Made by a program: the position numbers and the translations under genes
Notes under the pieces: generated by a model
What the model was told of the DNA's origin: nothing
The model's input: only the letters and a program-made list of their open reading frames with translations
Databases searched by the model: none
Origin: Anaerolineae bacterium
GTDB lineage: Bacteria; Chloroflexota; Anaerolineae; VGOG01
Assembly: GCA_049589355.1 (NCBI GenBank)
Contig: JBAWAP010000384.1
Coordinates: 2,349 to 66,348, forward strand
Length of the DNA: 64,000 bases
Direction: 5' to 3'
Shown: piece after piece, positions 2,521 to 37,812 of the stretch
How the letters are laid out: each line of letters opens with the position of its first letter
Numbering within the stretch: the stretch's first letter is position 1

Positions 2521-2549
2521 ACTTGACAACATGGGCATCCTAACCTATA
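2521..2549 (+). promoter_or_regulatory. Consensus sigma-70 promoter (TTGACA-17 nt-TATAAT)
   Basis: ttgacaacatgggcatcctaacctataat. Both hexamers perfect with a 17-nt spacer. Confidence 0.55.
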
Positions 2550-2556
2550 ATTCCCC

Positions 2557-2710
2557 TTGGGAAACAAGCAATGTACCTGATGGGGAAGAGGTTAGCTGCT
2601 AAACACGATTCGTGGGCTTTGGACCCGTCGCTTTCGGTGGACCGGGTAAGTGTGCGGGCGTTGATTACGCTTAGAGCCTAATGCCTTCGGGCATTGGGCT
2701 CTTTTTGTTC
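2557..2710 (+). ncRNA. Candidate ~150-nt small RNA or riboswitch-like leader of the downstream zinc-ribbon gene
   Basis: Bounded by a perfect promoter (2521-2549) and an intrinsic terminator (2673-2710); no plausible ORF inside. Class not identified. Confidence 0.3.
2673..2710 (+). terminator. Rho-independent terminator hairpin
   Basis: AGAGCCTAATGCC-TTCG-GGCATTGGGCTCT followed by TTTTTGTT. Confidence 0.6.
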
Positions 2711-2743
2711 TAGCTTGTGGCAAATGGCTGACGCTACACTTCT

Positions 2744-3463
2744 ATGGAGGTTGCTATCATGAGTAAGGCTGAGAGACTTTATCGCTTGCAGACCATTGAC
2801 CTGGAGGTCGAGGCGAGGAACTGCCGCCTGAGAGAAGTGAAAGCCACTTTGGAAGGAAATGAGGAATTGCAACGAGTGCGGCAGGCCCTGCAAGACGGAG
2901 AGAAGAAACTGAGCCGGCAGCGAACGAAGCTGCGCGACAGGGAACTGGAGATGCAAAGCCTGACCAACAAGATTGTTTCGGTGGAGGATATTCTCTACGG
3001 CGGCCGTATCAAAACCCCCAAGGAGCTAGCCAATCTTCAGGAAGAGGTTCAGTACCTGAAGCGCAGGAAGGGCGAACTCGAAGATCAGGTGTTGGAATCC
3101 ATGATCGAGGTTGAGGAGAGCGAAGCCAGCGTGACGGAGCAGCGGGAGAGGCTGGCCCGCCTGGATGAGGAGTGGCAAGAGACCCAAGCCCGGCTCTCCG
3201 CCGAACAAAATGAGCTAATAAGCCGACTGAGCCAACTAAAGGCGGAACGGGCTGGACTACAGAGGGCAATTGAGGCAGGCGACCTGGCCTTATACGAGGA
3301 TTTGCGACGCCGCAGGGGTGGGCGAGCGGTGGCTCTCCTGGAAGGCGAACTCTGTCAGGCCTGCAGGGTGACCCTGCCCACCAGCAAGGCGCAACAGGCC
3401 CGTCAAGGAGAGGCATTGACCCTCTGCAGTAGCTGCGAGCGCATCCTCTATGTGGAGCGATAG
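2744..3463 (+). CDS. Coiled-coil zinc-ribbon protein (COG1579/DUF164-like, C4-type)
   Basis: Long coiled-coil region followed by CQACRVTLP...CSSCERILY C4 ribbon. Probable true start MSKAER at 2759. Confidence 0.7.
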   Translation: MEVAIMSKAERLYRLQTIDLEVEARNCRLREVKATLEGNEELQRVRQALQDGEKKLSRQRTKLRDRELEMQSLTNKIVSVEDILYGGRIKTPKELANLQEEVQYLKRRKGELEDQVLESMIEVEESEASVTEQRERLARLDEEWQETQARLSAEQNELISRLSQLKAERAGLQRAIEAGDLALYEDLRRRRGGRAVALLEGELCQACRVTLPTSKAQQARQGEALTLCSSCERILYVER

Positions 3464-3880
3464 AGGCTTAACTATTCTAACAATCTTTCCTCCACTCTCT
3501 GAGCTGACAAACCAGATCAGAATCAGAAGCCCGGCTCTGTCGAAGCCTGGCTTTAACTGTCTTGCGTCTAGGACAGCTCGGTGTCAAGAATGCCTTGCTG
3601 CAGAGCTAGAGCTACCGCTTAGGTGCGGGCAGGCGCGTCAAGTCTCCACCTTGTCTACGAATGACTTTTCGATTACAATATGGGTGATCAAAGTGAGAAA
3701 ATTTCATCTTGGACAAGGACAGGCTGGCGCGCTACGGGGAGAAGTGCTTCGAGATCACCTTGCGGGGCATCGCGCTGGAGACCGTCAGCGAGAAGAGGCT
3801 GTTCACCGCGCTGCGCCTGGCCCGCAAGCGGCGTCGGTAAAAGGATAGACATCACGGAACAGAGGGAAACTATTGAAGGA

Positions 3881-4510
3881 ATGACGAACACGACTCCCAC
3901 CATCGAGCATGTGCGCGCCACGATGCATGGTCCGCTGCCCGGCCTTGAGGCGCAGATCACCATGGCTCCGTGCCCACGCCCGTTCAGTCCACCTCCCGGC
4001 GTCGAGCCCCGCCAGGCCGGGGTCCTGCTGGTCCTGTACCCCATCCACGGCGTGCTCCACCTGATGTTGACTGTGCGCACGCCAGACCTAAATCACCACA
4101 GCGGTCAGGTCTCGCTGCCCGGAGGCGGGTGGGAGGAAGGGGATGCTTCGCTCCAGGAGACCGCGCTGCGTGAGGCTCAGGAGGAAATCGGGATCGTCAG
4201 TGACGAGTTGGAACTTCTTGGTTCCCTCACGCCGATCTATGTCCCGCCCAGCAACAACATCGTTCATCCTTTCGTCGCTTACGTACCCCAACGCCCCTCC
4301 TTTCACCCCGATCCCAAAGAAGTGGCCGAGTTGCTGGATGTCCCCCTGTATCTGCTTCTGGACCCGGCGACGCGGCGCGAGGAGGACTGGACTTGGCGTG
4401 GAGCACCCTTGCACGTTCCCTTCTACGCTGCGGGCGAGCATAAGGTCTGGGGCGCTACCGCTATCATACTGGCTGAGTTCATCGCGCTGCTCACCCAATT
4501 GCCAACCTGA
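3881..4510 (+). CDS. NUDIX hydrolase (CoA pyrophosphatase-like)
   Basis: Nudix box GGGWEEGDASLQETALREAQEEIG. ATG at 3881 chosen over the upstream long ORF start (3680). Confidence 0.8.
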   Translation: MTNTTPTIEHVRATMHGPLPGLEAQITMAPCPRPFSPPPGVEPRQAGVLLVLYPIHGVLHLMLTVRTPDLNHHSGQVSLPGGGWEEGDASLQETALREAQEEIGIVSDELELLGSLTPIYVPPSNNIVHPFVAYVPQRPSFHPDPKEVAELLDVPLYLLLDPATRREEDWTWRGAPLHVPFYAAGEHKVWGATAIILAEFIALLTQLPT

Positions 4511-13262: not shown

Positions 13263-14147
13263 TTACAAAGTCAGGCCATGCTTCTCGGCGAGCATCCGCG
13301 CCCTGGCCATCAGCGCGTCGTGATAGGGCTTGCGGTTGGCGGCGATGTGGCGGTATCCCTCCACCAGGTCGGGGTAATGCCTCTCCAGCACCCTCCTGAC
13401 CTTGCCCCAGATCGCGCCGCTCAGTTTCATGCTGTCCACGAAAATGTAGGAGACACCCGCCCGCGCCAGTTCTCCGAAGAGGGCATCCATTTGCTCCTCT
13501 CCGTCTGAGAGGAAGGGCAGAAGCGGCCCGCAGAAGGCCCAGGTTCTGATCCCCGCACTCGCCAGCTCTGCCAGGGTTACCAGGCGGGCTGGAACAGGCG
13601 AGGAGCGGGGCTCAAACACGCGCCGCACCTCCTCGTCGAGAGTGGCGATGGTGAAGCCTATTTCTATGTCAGGGAGACGGAGAAGGAGGTCGAGGTCGCG
13701 CAGCACCAGGTCGGATTTGGTGAGGATGGAGACGGGAAAATCGCAGGCGGTGAGCACCTCCAGGCAGGCGCAAGTGATTTGATACTTCCTCTCCAGCGGC
13801 TGGTAGGGGTCGGTTACCGTGCCAATGGCGATGTTACCCCTCTTGGCTCGCCTCATCTGTCGGGCCAGCACCTCCGCTGCGTTGATCTTGGCGTCCACAA
13901 AGGTGCCCCAGTCCTCTTTGTGGCCGGTGAAGCGCTTCATGAAGATGGCGTAGCAGTAGACGCAGCCGTGGCTGCAGCCGACGTAGGGGTTGATGGCATA
14001 GTCAACCCCCTCGATGCCCGATTTGGTGAGGATGGACTTGCAGTTTATTTCCTTTACGATCACGTCGTGCTTTCCATGGTCACTGGTAATCCCCAAGCCA
14101 GTGGATTCTGGAGAAGTCGTCCCGGACAGTGTTGTACAGCCTCTCAT
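13263..14147 (-). CDS. Radical SAM protein, spore-photoproduct-lyase-like (SPL family)
   Basis: CSHGCVYCY CxxxCxxC motif; N-terminal KSILTKSG region typical of SPL-like 'DNA repair photolyase' radical SAM proteins. Confidence 0.75.
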   Translation of the reverse strand: MRGCTTLSGTTSPESTGLGITSDHGKHDVIVKEINCKSILTKSGIEGVDYAINPYVGCSHGCVYCYAIFMKRFTGHKEDWGTFVDAKINAAEVLARQMRRAKRGNIAIGTVTDPYQPLERKYQITCACLEVLTACDFPVSILTKSDLVLRDLDLLLRLPDIEIGFTIATLDEEVRRVFEPRSSPVPARLVTLAELASAGIRTWAFCGPLLPFLSDGEEQMDALFGELARAGVSYIFVDSMKLSGAIWGKVRRVLERHYPDLVEGYRHIAANRKPYHDALMARARMLAEKHGLTL

Positions 14148-14517
14148 CGGCTGTCCAGAACTCGCCTTCCATCATCTCGGCCAGGGCCAGGTAGTGAGTA
14201 TCATAGGCAGCGGGGCGGTCGAAGCGAGCGGCCAGGTCGAAGGCTTTCAAAGAGATGTTGGATGGGTGGAGTAGGCGCACTCCAAGCATAAGGGCCCCGC
14301 GGACGGCCTCTTTGGCCTCCTCCACACTCATTAGGCCCCGCTTCGCTTTTCGCCAGATGGCCGAGGTGATCTCGAAGCAGAAGAGGTAGGGAGCGACGAT
14401 TTCTCGATCCTCATTCAGCCATTTTCCCCACAAGGCCAAAGCGAGGGGGCGATCTGGTTCCGGGGCCACAAGTTTGACGACAATATTAGCATCAACGCAG
14501 ACCGGTGATCTCGGCAT
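14080..14517 (-). CDS. vapC: PIN-domain toxin VapC
   Basis: VDANIVV...CFEITSAIW...YDTHYLALAE acidic PIN residues. Start ATG at 14517 overlaps the antitoxin 3' end. Confidence 0.7.
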   Translation of the reverse strand: MPRSPVCVDANIVVKLVAPEPDRPLALALWGKWLNEDREIVAPYLFCFEITSAIWRKAKRGLMSVEEAKEAVRGALMLGVRLLHPSNISLKAFDLAARFDRPAAYDTHYLALAEMMEGEFWTADERLYNTVRDDFSRIHWLGDYQ

Positions 14518-14758
14518 CCCGCTCCTCCCGCATCTGGCGGATATCCTCGACGCAGCTAGGCATCTCGCCGTATTTCCGTTCGAGTTCATCACCCAAGGCT
14601 CGTACCCGCTCCAGTGCCTCCAGACTTTGTCTCCTCCGTATCTCCCGCTCTGTCGCCTCGGCGATCAATCGTGAACGCTCCCCACTGGGGATCAGCCGCT
14701 TGATCTCTTCCCAGAGCCCACGAGGGAAAACCAGGGAAACCCGTACTGTATCGCTCAT
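14492..14758 (-). CDS. Antitoxin (ribbon-helix-helix/VapB-like)
   Basis: 88 aa immediately upstream of and overlapping the PIN gene; basic N-terminus then helical C-terminus. Confidence 0.5.
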   Translation of the reverse strand: MSDTVRVSLVFPRGLWEEIKRLIPSGERSRLIAEATEREIRRRQSLEALERVRALGDELERKYGEMPSCVEDIRQMREERDAEITGLR

Positions 14759-14803
14759 ATATACCTCCTGTCAGCACTGATGTTCTATACCCATTATACA
14801 CCA

Positions 14804-15466
14804 TCATCGTTTCCTTGTCAATTTCTCTGGCCCAATGAAATCAGCCACCGCCTCAGCCACTTCCTTCTCCCGCCCTATGAGAAAGTGGTCGGTTCCCCTT
14901 AGGATGCGCATTTCCTTTGGAGGAGGCAGGCCCTCTACGAAGCGGTGTAGCACGTCGGGTGGACATACGGAATCGTCCTCGCCAGCGATGAAGAGCTTGG
15001 GCCTGGCATAGCTGCTGAGGAAGCCCTCTTCCGACTGCCATACAGGAAGCCCAATGGCGACTACGCCGCAAATGCGTGGATCATGCTCGGCATGGTGTAG
15101 CCCCACCCAGGCCCCGAAAGAATAGCCGACCAGGTAGAGCTTCCCTTGATCCACGCCTTTTGCTCGGAGGAGTAAATCCACCGCCCCGGCCACGTCATCT
15201 AGCTCTGCCACTCCATCGCCAAATGCCCCTTCGCTTCGCCCAACGCCGCGAAAGTTGAAGCGGAAGGCCATGATGTCACACTGCGCCAAGGTTCGAGCGA
15301 TGCTCACCACCACGGAGACGTCCATGCTGCCACCGTAAAGCGAATGAGGATGGCAAACTATTGCCGCCGGAAGATCCTTCCCGCCGGGACGGTGAAGGGC
15401 ACCCTCTAACTGGATGGCTTCCTCCCCTTTGCTGGTGAAGAAAAACCTTGTCTCCTTGATGGTCAT
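14804..15466 (-). CDS. Alpha/beta hydrolase (dienelactone hydrolase-like)
   Basis: GYSFGAW nucleophile elbow (G-x-S-x-G), 220 aa. Confidence 0.75.
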   Translation of the reverse strand: MTIKETRFFFTSKGEEAIQLEGALHRPGGKDLPAAIVCHPHSLYGGSMDVSVVVSIARTLAQCDIMAFRFNFRGVGRSEGAFGDGVAELDDVAGAVDLLLRAKGVDQGKLYLVGYSFGAWVGLHHAEHDPRICGVVAIGLPVWQSEEGFLSSYARPKLFIAGEDDSVCPPDVLHRFVEGLPPPKEMRILRGTDHFLIGREKEVAEAVADFIGPEKLTRKR

Positions 15467-35868: not shown

Positions 35869-36489
35869 CTATCGCACTCCAAGAATTTCTCTCGCCACCT
35901 CCAACGTTCGATCTGCCAGAAACAGCAGTCTCCTTTGGATCTCCTCCTCGTTAATCAGGCCGCCAAAGAGGTTCTCTGTCGTGAAGCCAGCGTTATTGAT
36001 GACCTCGAAACCGGCCAGCTTTCTCCCCATACACTTCGCATCGTCGGACACTAAGCCTGGCGTCCATTGTGCACCATCTGACCAGTGAGGGGCGGCCAGG
36101 ACCACGGCGCTGACGACAGAGCGTTTTAGTTTCTCCACCGGCGCCTGATGGGAGAAAGCTTGCGCTCTCTGAGAAAAGGCTATCCACAGAGCGGGTGGCA
36201 GGCCGCCATAATTCGGTATGAAGAGTAGCAAGATATCCGCCTGCTAGCACTTCTCCCAGATCATTCGTACATCGTCTTCAATCGGGCAGGCTTCATCTGC
36301 TCTGCGCTGTGGATCGAAGCGAGCCACACACTCATACGAGCAGCGCTGGCAGGGGGTGATTTGGCAGTCATAGAAGTTGATCAACTCCCCCTCTACGCGC
36401 TGCTGTTTGAGCCGCTCCAGCATAAACTCGGCGAAGTCATAGCAATTGCCTCGCTCTCTGGCGCTGACTACCAAGGCCAGGGCTTTCAT
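35869..36489 (-). pseudogene. Flavodoxin-like/NADPH-dependent FMN reductase-like gene interrupted by an in-frame TAG
   Basis: ORFs 36244-36489 and 35869-36231 are in the same frame, separated only by TAG (WEKC*QADILLLFIPNYGG). Confidence 0.45.
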
Positions 36490-37445
36490 CGCCTCCTCCC
36501 TCTCCCCGGGTTTGGAATGTAACGCAGGGCCACTTCGGCGGCTTGTGCTCGCTGCTCATCCTGTAGCCAGCCCTCCAGAACCGGCCGCACGGCCTCAGGC
36601 TGGCGCTGGCCCAGATAGTGGAGTGCAGAAGCGGCGGCTCGCCAGACAAAGCGCCGCTCGTCAGCCGCCAACTGGCCGAGGATTTCGAGTGCCTCCTGCA
36701 AATGTCGAGTTCCCCCGAAGCTACGAAAGGCCATGGCCACATTCCACCGCACCTCTTCTCTGGGGTCATCGGCCCAGCGACGAAGGCGGGCCAGAGTGGG
36801 CCGCGGATGGCACCTCAAGAGCCCATCGCCGATGGCATAGGGACCCAGATTCTTGCGTACGTACTCCTCGCGGTCGGCGAGTAGCGACTCCACCAGGTTG
36901 AGGAGGGCCTCGGCCCACTCTTCTCTCCGCTCGTTGCCCGCCTTCCGCACGGCGATGGTCACACCTCGCCGCACGTTGGCAGAAGGATGCCGCGTCCAGG
37001 ACCAGAGAACGCGGTAGAAGACGTCGAAGTGGGCTACGAGGAGGCTGCCCAGCGTACTATGGGCAGCCTCGCGGACCCACCAGTCCTCGTCGTCGGCGAG
37101 ACGCAGAAGCCATGCCTGAACCTCGGCAGCCCGCAAGGGCCAGTAGTGACGAAGCAAAGGGGCTGCGACGGCTCTCGCCGCTGGCTCCGGCCGCTCGGCC
37201 AGACGGCAGGTCCAATCGTAGAGCTCTTCCGTCCCAGGACCGAGGGCCTCCTCGATAGTCACCATGGCCTGGTAGCCAGTCTTGCCCCACTTGGTGGTCA
37301 TCAGGGTAGCAACCAGGCCCTCCTCGTCATCGGCTTCGAGAGCGCGTTGCGCAGCCTGAGCGTCGAACTGGCCCTTGGACGAACTTGCAAGCCCAGGTGT
37401 GCGGGTTGTTTCCTGGTGTTGCGGCAACCGGTTGGCCAACGACAT
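36486..37445 (-). CDS. DNA alkylation repair protein (AlkD/AlkC-like HEAT-like-repeat glycosylase family)
   Basis: WWVREAAHSTLG, NVRRGVTIAV, EVRWNVAMAF motifs typical of the DNA_alkylation HLR family. Confidence 0.65.
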   Translation of the reverse strand: MSLANRLPQHQETTRTPGLASSSKGQFDAQAAQRALEADDEEGLVATLMTTKWGKTGYQAMVTIEEALGPGTEELYDWTCRLAERPEPAARAVAAPLLRHYWPLRAAEVQAWLLRLADDEDWWVREAAHSTLGSLLVAHFDVFYRVLWSWTRHPSANVRRGVTIAVRKAGNERREEWAEALLNLVESLLADREEYVRKNLGPYAIGDGLLRCHPRPTLARLRRWADDPREEVRWNVAMAFRSFGGTRHLQEALEILGQLAADERRFVWRAAASALHYLGQRQPEAVRPVLEGWLQDEQRAQAAEVALRYIPNPGRGRRR

Positions 37446-37465
37446 GGCTACATCCCCTTTATATA

Positions 37466-37507
37466 GAACGAATGTTCGACATCCACATTATACCAGAACA
37501 TCTGTTC
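37466..37507. promoter_or_regulatory. Two Cheo-type LexA (SOS) boxes GAAC-N4-GTTC
   Basis: AGAACGAATGTTCG (37465-37478) and AGAACATCTGTTCG (37495-37508), positioned over the spacer and +1 of the promoter below. Confidence 0.6.
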
Positions 37508-37515
37508 GTTGTCAA
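37487..37515 (-). promoter_or_regulatory. Consensus sigma-70 promoter (TTGACA-17-TATAAT) driving the AlkD-like gene and downstream minus-strand genes
   Basis: Minus-strand reading cTTGACAacgaacagatgttctggTATAATg, ~45 nt upstream of the ATG at 37445. Confidence 0.6.
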
Positions 37516-37737
37516 GTTCGTGTAAGCAGGAATGTGCATTTCAGTTCTGGGGCAAATGCCATGGCGAGCGAAGCGAAGCAATCTCCTTTCCTGCATTTGG
37601 GGATTGCTTCGTCGCTGCGCTCCTCGCAATGACAGACTGCGCCAACCCTCAGTCTCGCCCCCAAATTGAAATACACCTTAAGCAGGGCGGCATTTGACTT
37701 TTTGTGGCCTGATCAGTATAATACTAATAGCTTGAGC

Positions 37738-37812
37738 GCGGGTGTGACGCAGGGGTAGCGTATCTGCTTCCCAAGCAGAGTGTCGAGGGTTCGAATCCCT
37801 TCACCCGCTCCA
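37738..37812 (+). tRNA. tRNA-Gly (anticodon CCC)
   Basis: GCGGGTG acceptor stem, anticodon stem TCTGC/GCAGA with loop TTCCCAA, T-loop GGTTCGAATCC, 3' CACCCGC-T-CCA. Confidence 0.9.

Follow-up and report, generated by a model that had tools for sequence, protein, structure and literature searches.

The described systems closest to the leader reported here are the E. coli pyrE and pyrBI attenuators, in which a terminator lies just 5' of the gene and an open reading frame (ORF) either ends before it, as rph does in front of pyrE, or runs through it, as does the 44-codon pyrBI leader. In both, the hairpin cannot form when a ribosome follows RNA polymerase closely, and the sequence of the peptide is irrelevant. 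The trp, his, and leu attenuators likewise combine a strong promoter, a short translated ORF, and a terminator, and their terminated leader RNA accumulates. In a further set of leaders, namely TnaC, SpeFL, and SecM, a ribosome at or near the stop codon of a short ORF decides downstream transcription or translation. The coupling at the pyrBI pause site has been described (PMC4824070), and when a stop codon was shifted in E. coli to a place 5 bp ahead of a terminator, termination fell from ~90% to <10%, an effect that needed translation and was lost on uncoupling (PMC4824070).

The locus reported here lies in a stretch of 64,000 nucleotides of DNA from an uncultured member of the Anaerolineae (Chloroflexota), which was analysed as a whole and is referred to as the window. 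It precedes a zinc-ribbon gene of COG1579/DUF164, a family (H. pylori FlgZ, Chlamydia CT398, the mycobacterial homologue of Rv2229c) that is widespread and sometimes essential, and whose mechanism is not understood (PMC8469502, PMC3372290). As in pyrE and pyrBI, an intrinsic terminator stands before the gene, an ORF ends at or runs through that terminator, and the sequence of the peptide appears irrelevant; unlike in the pyr attenuators, the leader has no U-rich, UTP-sensitive pause region, the gene is unrelated to nucleotide synthesis, and the stem is nearly invariant across the class, which is not required there. The strong promoter, the short, presumably translated ORF, the terminator, and a terminated leader RNA that would accumulate are reminiscent of trp, his, and leu, but runs of regulatory codons and conserved antiterminator or anti-antiterminator helices are both lacking, and the stop codon lies inside the terminator instead of upstream of a 1:2, 2:3, and 3:4 helix set. 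The resemblance to TnaC, SpeFL, and SecM is that a ribosome at or near the stop of a short ORF would be decisive; their arrest motif is conserved in amino acids, whereas the leader peptide here has a pN/pS of ~0.8 and other frames and ends in relatives, and TnaC and SpeFL act on Rho. Position and layout are also those of the cis-regulatory leaders and riboswitches in Rfam, from which the locus differs in having no family match and no aptamer-like fold. Its features, by position in the window, are:

2523-2551, plus strand: sigma-70 promoter, TTGACA (2523-2528), 17-nt spacer, TATAAT (2546-2551), 12/12 match to the consensus

2559-2570, plus strand: short 5' untranslated region, with a purine-rich, Shine-Dalgarno-like GGGAA (2559-2563) 7 nt 5' of the leader ATG

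2571-2681, plus strand: leader ORF, ATG 2571 to TAA 2679-2681, 36 codons and stop, MYLMGKRLAAKHDSWALDPSLSVDRVSVRALITLRA

2623-2647, plus strand: small internal hairpin from the RNAalifold consensus, ACCCGUCGC-UUUC-GGUGGACCGGGU

2673-2702, U-run to 2709, plus strand: terminator/attenuator hairpin, 13-bp stem, AGAGCCUAAUGCC-UUCG-GGCAUUGGGCUCU

2710-2758, plus strand: spacer and translation start region, GGAGG at 2746-2750

2759-3463, plus strand: COG1579 (DUF164)/CT398-like gene, 234 aa, coiled coil and C4 zinc ribbon

Relatives of the locus were found in uncultured Anaerolineae and other Chloroflexota. Eighty species-level genome loci were fetched, anchored on the zinc-ribbon protein, and relatives are grouped below by the identity of that protein to the one in the window, i.e., group A (at least 70%; 24 distinct sequences, the window included), group B (54-61%), and group C (38-44%). 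Group A keeps the whole promoter-leader-hairpin unit, with a mean column identity of 84% over the transcript; the sequence 5' of the -35 hexamer is not alignable between its subclades, and the length of the spacer that follows the U-run is variable. The perfect TTGACA-17-TATAAT promoter seen in the initial annotation holds at every position, and its hexamers are unchanged in the alignment in every group A relative. Sigma-70 sites with at most one mismatch occur seven times in the 64-kb window versus 0.04 expected, a ~175-fold excess, which indicates that the host organism uses canonical sigma-70 promoters; a chance origin of the promoter at 2523-2551 is very unlikely. Judged from its position, transcription would start at ~2558, and the predicted transcript runs from there to ~2708, in agreement with the span of ~150 nt that had been placed between promoter and terminator.

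The spacer between the -35 and -10 hexamers, at the equivalent of window positions 2529-2545, reads CAGGATG-GG-CATCCTG in most group A relatives (L002, L004, L005, L007, L092, and others), a perfect 7-bp inverted repeat that resembles a repressor operator; the promoter spacer of the window keeps only its right half (GGGCATCCT). The gene 5' of the promoter (1630-2418) encodes 262 aa that comprise two receiver (REC) domains, with no output domain recognised, and ends 104 nt 5' of the -35 hexamer. ANTAR-type antitermination by this response regulator was rejected, as it has two receiver domains and no ANTAR domain, and the leader has no paired hexaloop hairpins.

The hairpin at the 3' end of the predicted transcript folds on its own at -23.5 kcal/mol (z = -6.6 versus shuffles) and is followed by TTTTTGTT, with the U-run UUUUUGUU at 2702-2709. 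It is thus the strong intrinsic terminator that the initial annotation took it for, and the ~37 nt between the end of its U-run and GGAGG agree with the ~35 nt given there. It occurs once in the 64-kb window and once in every locus fetched. A gene-blind scan of metagenome contigs with the hairpin pattern gave 89 matches, of which 57 have a COG1579 start codon 20-200 nt downstream, for proteins that are 38-93% identical to the one in the window. Of the 31 matches away from COG1579, most are bidirectional palindromes with perfect Watson-Crick pairing that stand in unrelated surroundings, some next to rRNA, and they were disregarded; the remaining match is cut by a contig end. When a covariance model of the hairpin was run over 529 kb of the protein-anchored loci, plus-strand matches were obtained just 5' of the COG1579 gene and nowhere else, in 25 of the 80 species, with one exception. 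In this exception (L010, Anaerolineales; 1640-1890), the same unit (promoter TGTGGTATAAT, ORF of 40 codons, hairpin) precedes NIF3 (COG0327), which is followed by COG1579; the pairing of NIF3 with COG1579 is already known, and the arrangement fits it (PMC8469502). What lies 5' of the hairpin differs between lineages (response regulator, lgt, a small ORF, or NIF3) while the COG1579 gene is constant, and the linkage holds also in lineages that have neither the upstream promoter nor the leader. A genome-wide repeat or a terminator of the uptake-sequence type is ruled out by the single copy per 64 kb and per locus. The hairpin is, in short, a gene-linked element that stands almost unchanged before COG1579 across the class Anaerolineae.

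Among close relatives the hairpin is 99.6% paired, and over 36 distinct sequences compensatory changes are found at two stem positions (UA/UG/CG and AU/GU/GC), with a score that was reached by 0 of 500 shuffles. Ten of the 12 stem pairs are invariant over these 36 copies, an invariance that is partly imposed by the pattern used to select the metagenome copies, and the loop varies in sequence and in length (3-5 nt); the consensus is GAGCCYRAUGCC-loop-GGCAUNRGGCUC followed by the U-run. The relaxed copies that the covariance model found in the protein-anchored genomes retain the core GCCYGRUGC...GCAYNRGGC. The G-U wobble pairs and loops of 3-5 nt indicate that selection acts on an RNA helix, and they rule out a DNA operator palindrome.

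The leader ORF's stop codon overlaps an AUG (UAAUG; ATG 2681-2683) that opens a 10-codon ORF, MPSGIGLFLF (window 2679-2713), across the loop, the 3' arm, and the U-run. Such UAAUG/UGAUG overlaps are common among the hairpin copies; all those selected by pattern have the AUG, and three relaxed ones (L010, L037, L023) have GUG instead. The overlap could be a termination-reinitiation site or a mere consequence of the sequence of the helix.

The zinc-ribbon protein matches Pfam PF24481 (1.2e-17) and PF02591, and its start is likely ATG 2759 and not 2744, since homologues of 234 aa predominate; a search by its exact sequence returned no contig. No promoter-like site was found between the U-run and the Shine-Dalgarno sequence, either by a scan of the window or by inspection of the spacers of relatives. 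The spacer from U-run to Shine-Dalgarno sequence is only 14-19 nt long in four relatives (L003, L092, L103, L127), and in group C there are ~11 nt from the U-run to AGGAGG. With spacers this short and no promoter inside them, the zinc-ribbon gene would be transcribed by read-through only, and the hairpin would be part of the leader of the COG1579 mRNA. That this is a leader of the zinc-ribbon gene, as had been suggested, is therefore borne out by the short spacers and by the way in which promoter, leader, and hairpin are kept together upstream of its orthologues. Behind the zinc-ribbon gene, a gap of 216 nt (3464-3679) with a weak promoter-like site (3651-3679) and no RNA family match separates it from a NUDIX gene (3680-4510).

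The initial annotation had called the element a small RNA (sRNA) or a novel riboswitch-like leader. A promoter, ~110 nt, a terminator, and a gene are a typical riboswitch layout, and the region is conserved at the nucleotide level, so that a metabolite- or ion-binding aptamer within 2558-2672, with the terminator as expression platform, had to be considered. None of the 4227 families in Rfam matched, either in a scan of the window at gathering thresholds or in a permissive scan of 2400-2800 (E up to 10), in accordance with the earlier remark that no known riboswitch consensus could be recognised; the sole sub-threshold match was the terminator-like sbrA (E = 0.013), and a gathering scan of 13 relatives gave no relevant family. 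Without the terminator, the leader folds like its shuffles (z = +0.62). RNAalifold on 21 sequences returned the terminator and two small hairpins only, with the 5' 70 nt unpaired and a covariation term of -0.72. The comparison of COG1579 upstream regions that had been proposed as a check gave conservation of the unit and covariation in the hairpin, but none above controls in the leader, where pair counting yielded 0.138 versus 0.137 in shuffled controls. An alternative (antiterminator) pairing to either arm was sought by inspection of alignments and minimum free energy folds, and no conserved one was seen; furthermore, group B leaders carry indels of 30 nt and of 20/40/60 nt. Taken together, a riboswitch is highly improbable, and only the leader half of the term riboswitch-like leader stands, i.e., the unit is conserved before orthologues but its leader has neither an aptamer-like fold nor covariation above controls. 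Single-sequence folds, RNAalifold, and pair counting revealed nothing beyond the terminator, and a structured sRNA was rejected along with the riboswitch; a 6S-like rod was ruled out because there is no closing stem and no rod-like fold. The small internal hairpin at 2623-2647 is 89-92% paired across relatives, has one compensatory change per helix, and has an energy of -10.1 kcal/mol, which is no better than that of shuffles; it is a weakly supported candidate for an RNA polymerase pause hairpin.

The 150 nt between promoter and terminator had been taken to be non-coding sequence, and in this respect the earlier view has to be revised, since they contain a 36-codon ORF that is kept open in relatives and whose stop codon (2679-2681) sits within the 5' arm of the hairpin. 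The ORF is intact in 23 of the 24 distinct group A sequences; in the exception (L095), a 1-nt insertion brings the stop forward by 6 nt, to the stem base. Across 21 aligned group A sequences, no stop codon occurs in the ORF frame at any of the 36 codon positions, and in the other two frames of the same alignment, stops are polymorphic at 8 and 6 positions. Given at least 134 substitutions (a lower bound), each with a 3.7% chance of creating a stop, and among sequences that are related to each other, ~5 stop-creating substitutions were expected in group A versus 0 observed (P ~0.007). Indels within the group A leaders are in-frame, lie 5' of a replacement ATG, or are compensated.

The peptide itself is not maintained. 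The pN/pS of the ORF in group A is 0.74-0.80, the same as in the off-frames, versus 0.25 for the zinc-ribbon gene in the same genomes; over all estimates, group B included, the ORF has 0.74-0.89 and the zinc-ribbon gene 0.21-0.25. In one relative (L139), 74 of the 108 aligned columns fall in a different phase, and the ORF is open nonetheless. Conservation in the group A ORF is highest over its C-terminal codons (..ALITLRA-stop), where it is equally strong at synonymous sites, and the leader peptides have no match in Pfam or NCBIfam. Selection keeps the leader ORF open while its peptide drifts, and an open frame with a peptide that is not under purifying selection fits a regulatory ORF, for which translation matters and the product does not.

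In group B, the leader ORF starts with GTG behind a TGGTATAAT promoter and a strong AAGGAGA Shine-Dalgarno sequence, with 0 stops over 41 ungapped codons versus 5 and 6 polymorphic positions in the off-frames (2.7 stops expected, P ~0.07) and a pN/pS of 0.89. Group A and group B leaders can be aligned at their 5' ends over a Shine-Dalgarno-like sequence, the start codon, and YACC: the GGGAA of the window, in a stretch whose GGGAA/GAG columns are at least 90% conserved in the group A alignment, corresponds to the AAGGAGA/AGGGA Shine-Dalgarno sequence and GTG start of group B. By inspection, inner nucleotide blocks common to both groups are read in different frames. The 3' end of the group B ORF moves with the 20/40/60-nt indels; depending on the locus, it coincides with the base of the stem or with the same 5'-arm UAA, falls in the loop, lies just past the U-run, or reaches into the Shine-Dalgarno sequence of the zinc-ribbon gene. 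Among the individual loci, the ORF ends at the same 5'-arm UAA/UGA in six (L009, L012, L107, L154, L168, L123), in the 3' arm in L010, and at the stem base in L011 and L167, and runs on to the Shine-Dalgarno sequence of the zinc-ribbon gene in L086, L126, L164, and L166; in L009, L012, L107, and L010, ORFs of 27-40 codons each end inside the hairpin. Different frames with ends near the hairpin imply that what is conserved is an RNA presumably translated up to or through the hairpin and not a protein. A conserved small protein is accordingly ruled out by the pN/pS of 0.74-0.89, the phase change in L139, the frame differences between groups A and B, and the lack of a family match. A motif shared by groups A and B, VxVR[AS]L, was also dropped, as the nucleotide alignment puts the homologous blocks in different frames.

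The 20/40/60-nt indel modules in group B lie just 5' of the hairpin (L011, L089, L143, L167, L154, L123; ~60 nt were viewed on each side). In some group B loci there is a complementary block 3' of the hairpin, with CCACUGUUGCACCAC..CGGUACAGGCGG against CCUGUGCCGCC..GUGGUGCAAUAGUGG, which would put the terminator at the tip of a much longer stem, and L011 has tandem CCTGTGCCG repeats.

The element is best read, with some reserve, as a ribosome-coupled transcription attenuator of the pyrE/pyrBI type, composed of a promoter, a short translated ORF, and a terminator with the ORF stop in its 5' arm. Translation of the leader ORF, and the dependence of termination on it, are deduced here from the arrangement and its conservation. 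Most transcripts would end at the hairpin and give an RNA of ~150 nt. A ribosome that translates the leader ORF close behind RNA polymerase would come to sit on or near the UAA at 2679-2681, cover the 5' arm, and so block the terminator, leading to read-through into the zinc-ribbon gene; where translation lags, the hairpin would form and the transcript would end as the ~150-nt RNA. Expression of the zinc-ribbon gene would in this manner report how tightly translation follows transcription. In favour of the attenuator, a terminator (the hairpin of -23.5 kcal/mol with its U-run) stands before a gene that has no other promoter, an ORF ends within reach of a ribosome at that terminator, as it does in 23 of 24 close relatives and also in a number of distant lineages, and the depletion of stops in this frame only points to selection for translation and not for the product. 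Against it, the Shine-Dalgarno-like GGGAA of the window ORF is weak to moderate, relatives of the L006 type have no good one, and without a pause site, it is rare for a ribosome to reach RNA polymerase over the first 100 bp (PMC4824070).

In the distant group C, the hairpin lies between an lgt-like gene and the zinc-ribbon gene, and a consistent bridging ORF was sought around it and not found, which is a further reserve; with frames that are inconsistent in this GC-rich DNA, the group itself argues neither way. In six group C loci (L042, L051, L071, L105, L114, L115), the stop codon of the lgt-like gene shares bases with an ATG inside a conserved YTGATGCNGGAT, and open frames of varying phase run from the end of lgt through the hairpin to an ATGA at the start of the zinc-ribbon gene. 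These frames may reflect translational coupling, inconsistent as they are.

The attenuator also leaves the near-invariant stem unexplained, which points to an additional, sequence-specific partner. Neither a terminator nor a ribosome sensor needs a stem that stays nearly invariant in front of proteins that are only ~40% identical, and this too suggests such a partner. The hairpin might then serve, within the 5' leader of the COG1579 mRNA, as an operator to which a protein binds sequence-specifically and so sets termination, stability, or translation; the leader ORF would be secondary, and the natural candidate partner would be the zinc-ribbon protein itself, in a feedback that is compatible with an attenuator. 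The constancy of 10 of 12 pairs next to a variable loop, the core retained in the relaxed copies, and a single-copy hairpin that follows the COG1579 gene whatever adjoins it 5' all speak for an operator, as does the proposal that the zinc ribbon of this family binds nucleic acid, with FlgZ discussed as a possible RNA chaperone (PMC3372290, PMC8469502). The naming of the partner is, however, a guess, part of the invariance stems from the metagenome search pattern, and sequence-specific recognition of a perfectly regular A-form helix is unusual. An operator of this kind is considered unlikely, and the more specific proposal that the hairpin is a dedicated RNA operator of the COG1579/DUF164 protein, i.e., an autoregulatory loop layered on a ribosome-sensitive terminator, somewhat more unlikely still.

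The conservation of the leader itself bears on a further alternative. Its nucleotide divergence of 0.25-0.31, versus a synonymous divergence of 0.43 in the neighbouring gene, is not codon-periodic, which suggests some constraint at the RNA level that an attenuator does not need and leaves room for a role of the terminated RNA in trans. The region could accordingly be an independent small gene, either for a trans-acting sRNA or for the mRNA of a fast-evolving small protein, with an incidental leak into the zinc-ribbon gene. Such a gene would have its own perfect promoter and strong terminator, conserved as a unit as is expected of an sRNA, and its conserved and predictedly unpaired 5' 70 nt would be like the seed regions of sRNAs; because a terminated leader would accumulate as an RNA of ~150 nt, the sRNA variant has to be kept in view, and leaders derived from attenuators are known to act in trans, e.g., rnTrpL. 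However, the zinc-ribbon gene would be left without a promoter of its own, the hairpin is tied to COG1579 even where the upstream promoter or leader is missing, and a pure sRNA does not explain the stop-free frame; the small-protein variant is at odds with the pN/pS of ~0.8, the phase change in L139, the frames that differ between groups A and B, and the lack of any family match. The strict linkage of hairpin and COG1579 argues for a role in cis, and an independent gene seems improbable.

Searches of the literature and of Rfam returned no earlier description of this element. An attenuator with a leader ORF is a known device; what is new is the gene family under control, the phylum, and a stem whose sequence is conserved across a class. 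The element is a conserved, previously unannotated cis-regulatory RNA through which the dosage of COG1579 would be controlled after transcription start, probably by the state of translation, and it would exemplify an ORF that is conserved for being translated and not for its product. It is a candidate for a new cis-regulatory family in Rfam, from a phylum in which hardly any RNA regulation has been characterised. In addition, the hairpin offers a defined RNA for testing binding by the zinc-ribbon protein; if it does prove to be an operator, it would be the first defined RNA ligand of, and a biochemical handle on, the widespread DUF164 family.

Further promoters of this type were noted in the window. 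A second perfect TTGACA-17-TATAAT promoter (37443-37515, minus strand) drives a gene for a 319-aa HEAT-repeat/DNA-alkylation-repair (AlkD-like) protein (36486-37445), and its spacer and early transcript each contain a GAAC-N4-GTTC (GAACAGATGTTC and GAACATTCGTTC) that resembles LexA boxes of the Gram-positive type. Another perfect match to the consensus, the third (14793-14821, minus strand; region 14080-14821), drives an 88-aa ORF without a Pfam match, behind which comes an overlapping 170-aa PIN-domain protein; the two probably form a toxin-antitoxin pair of the VapBC type. Lastly, a near-consensus promoter, TTGACT-17-TATAAT (within 37694-37812), lies directly 5' of tRNA-Gly(CCC) (37738-37812), the only tRNA in the 64-kb window.
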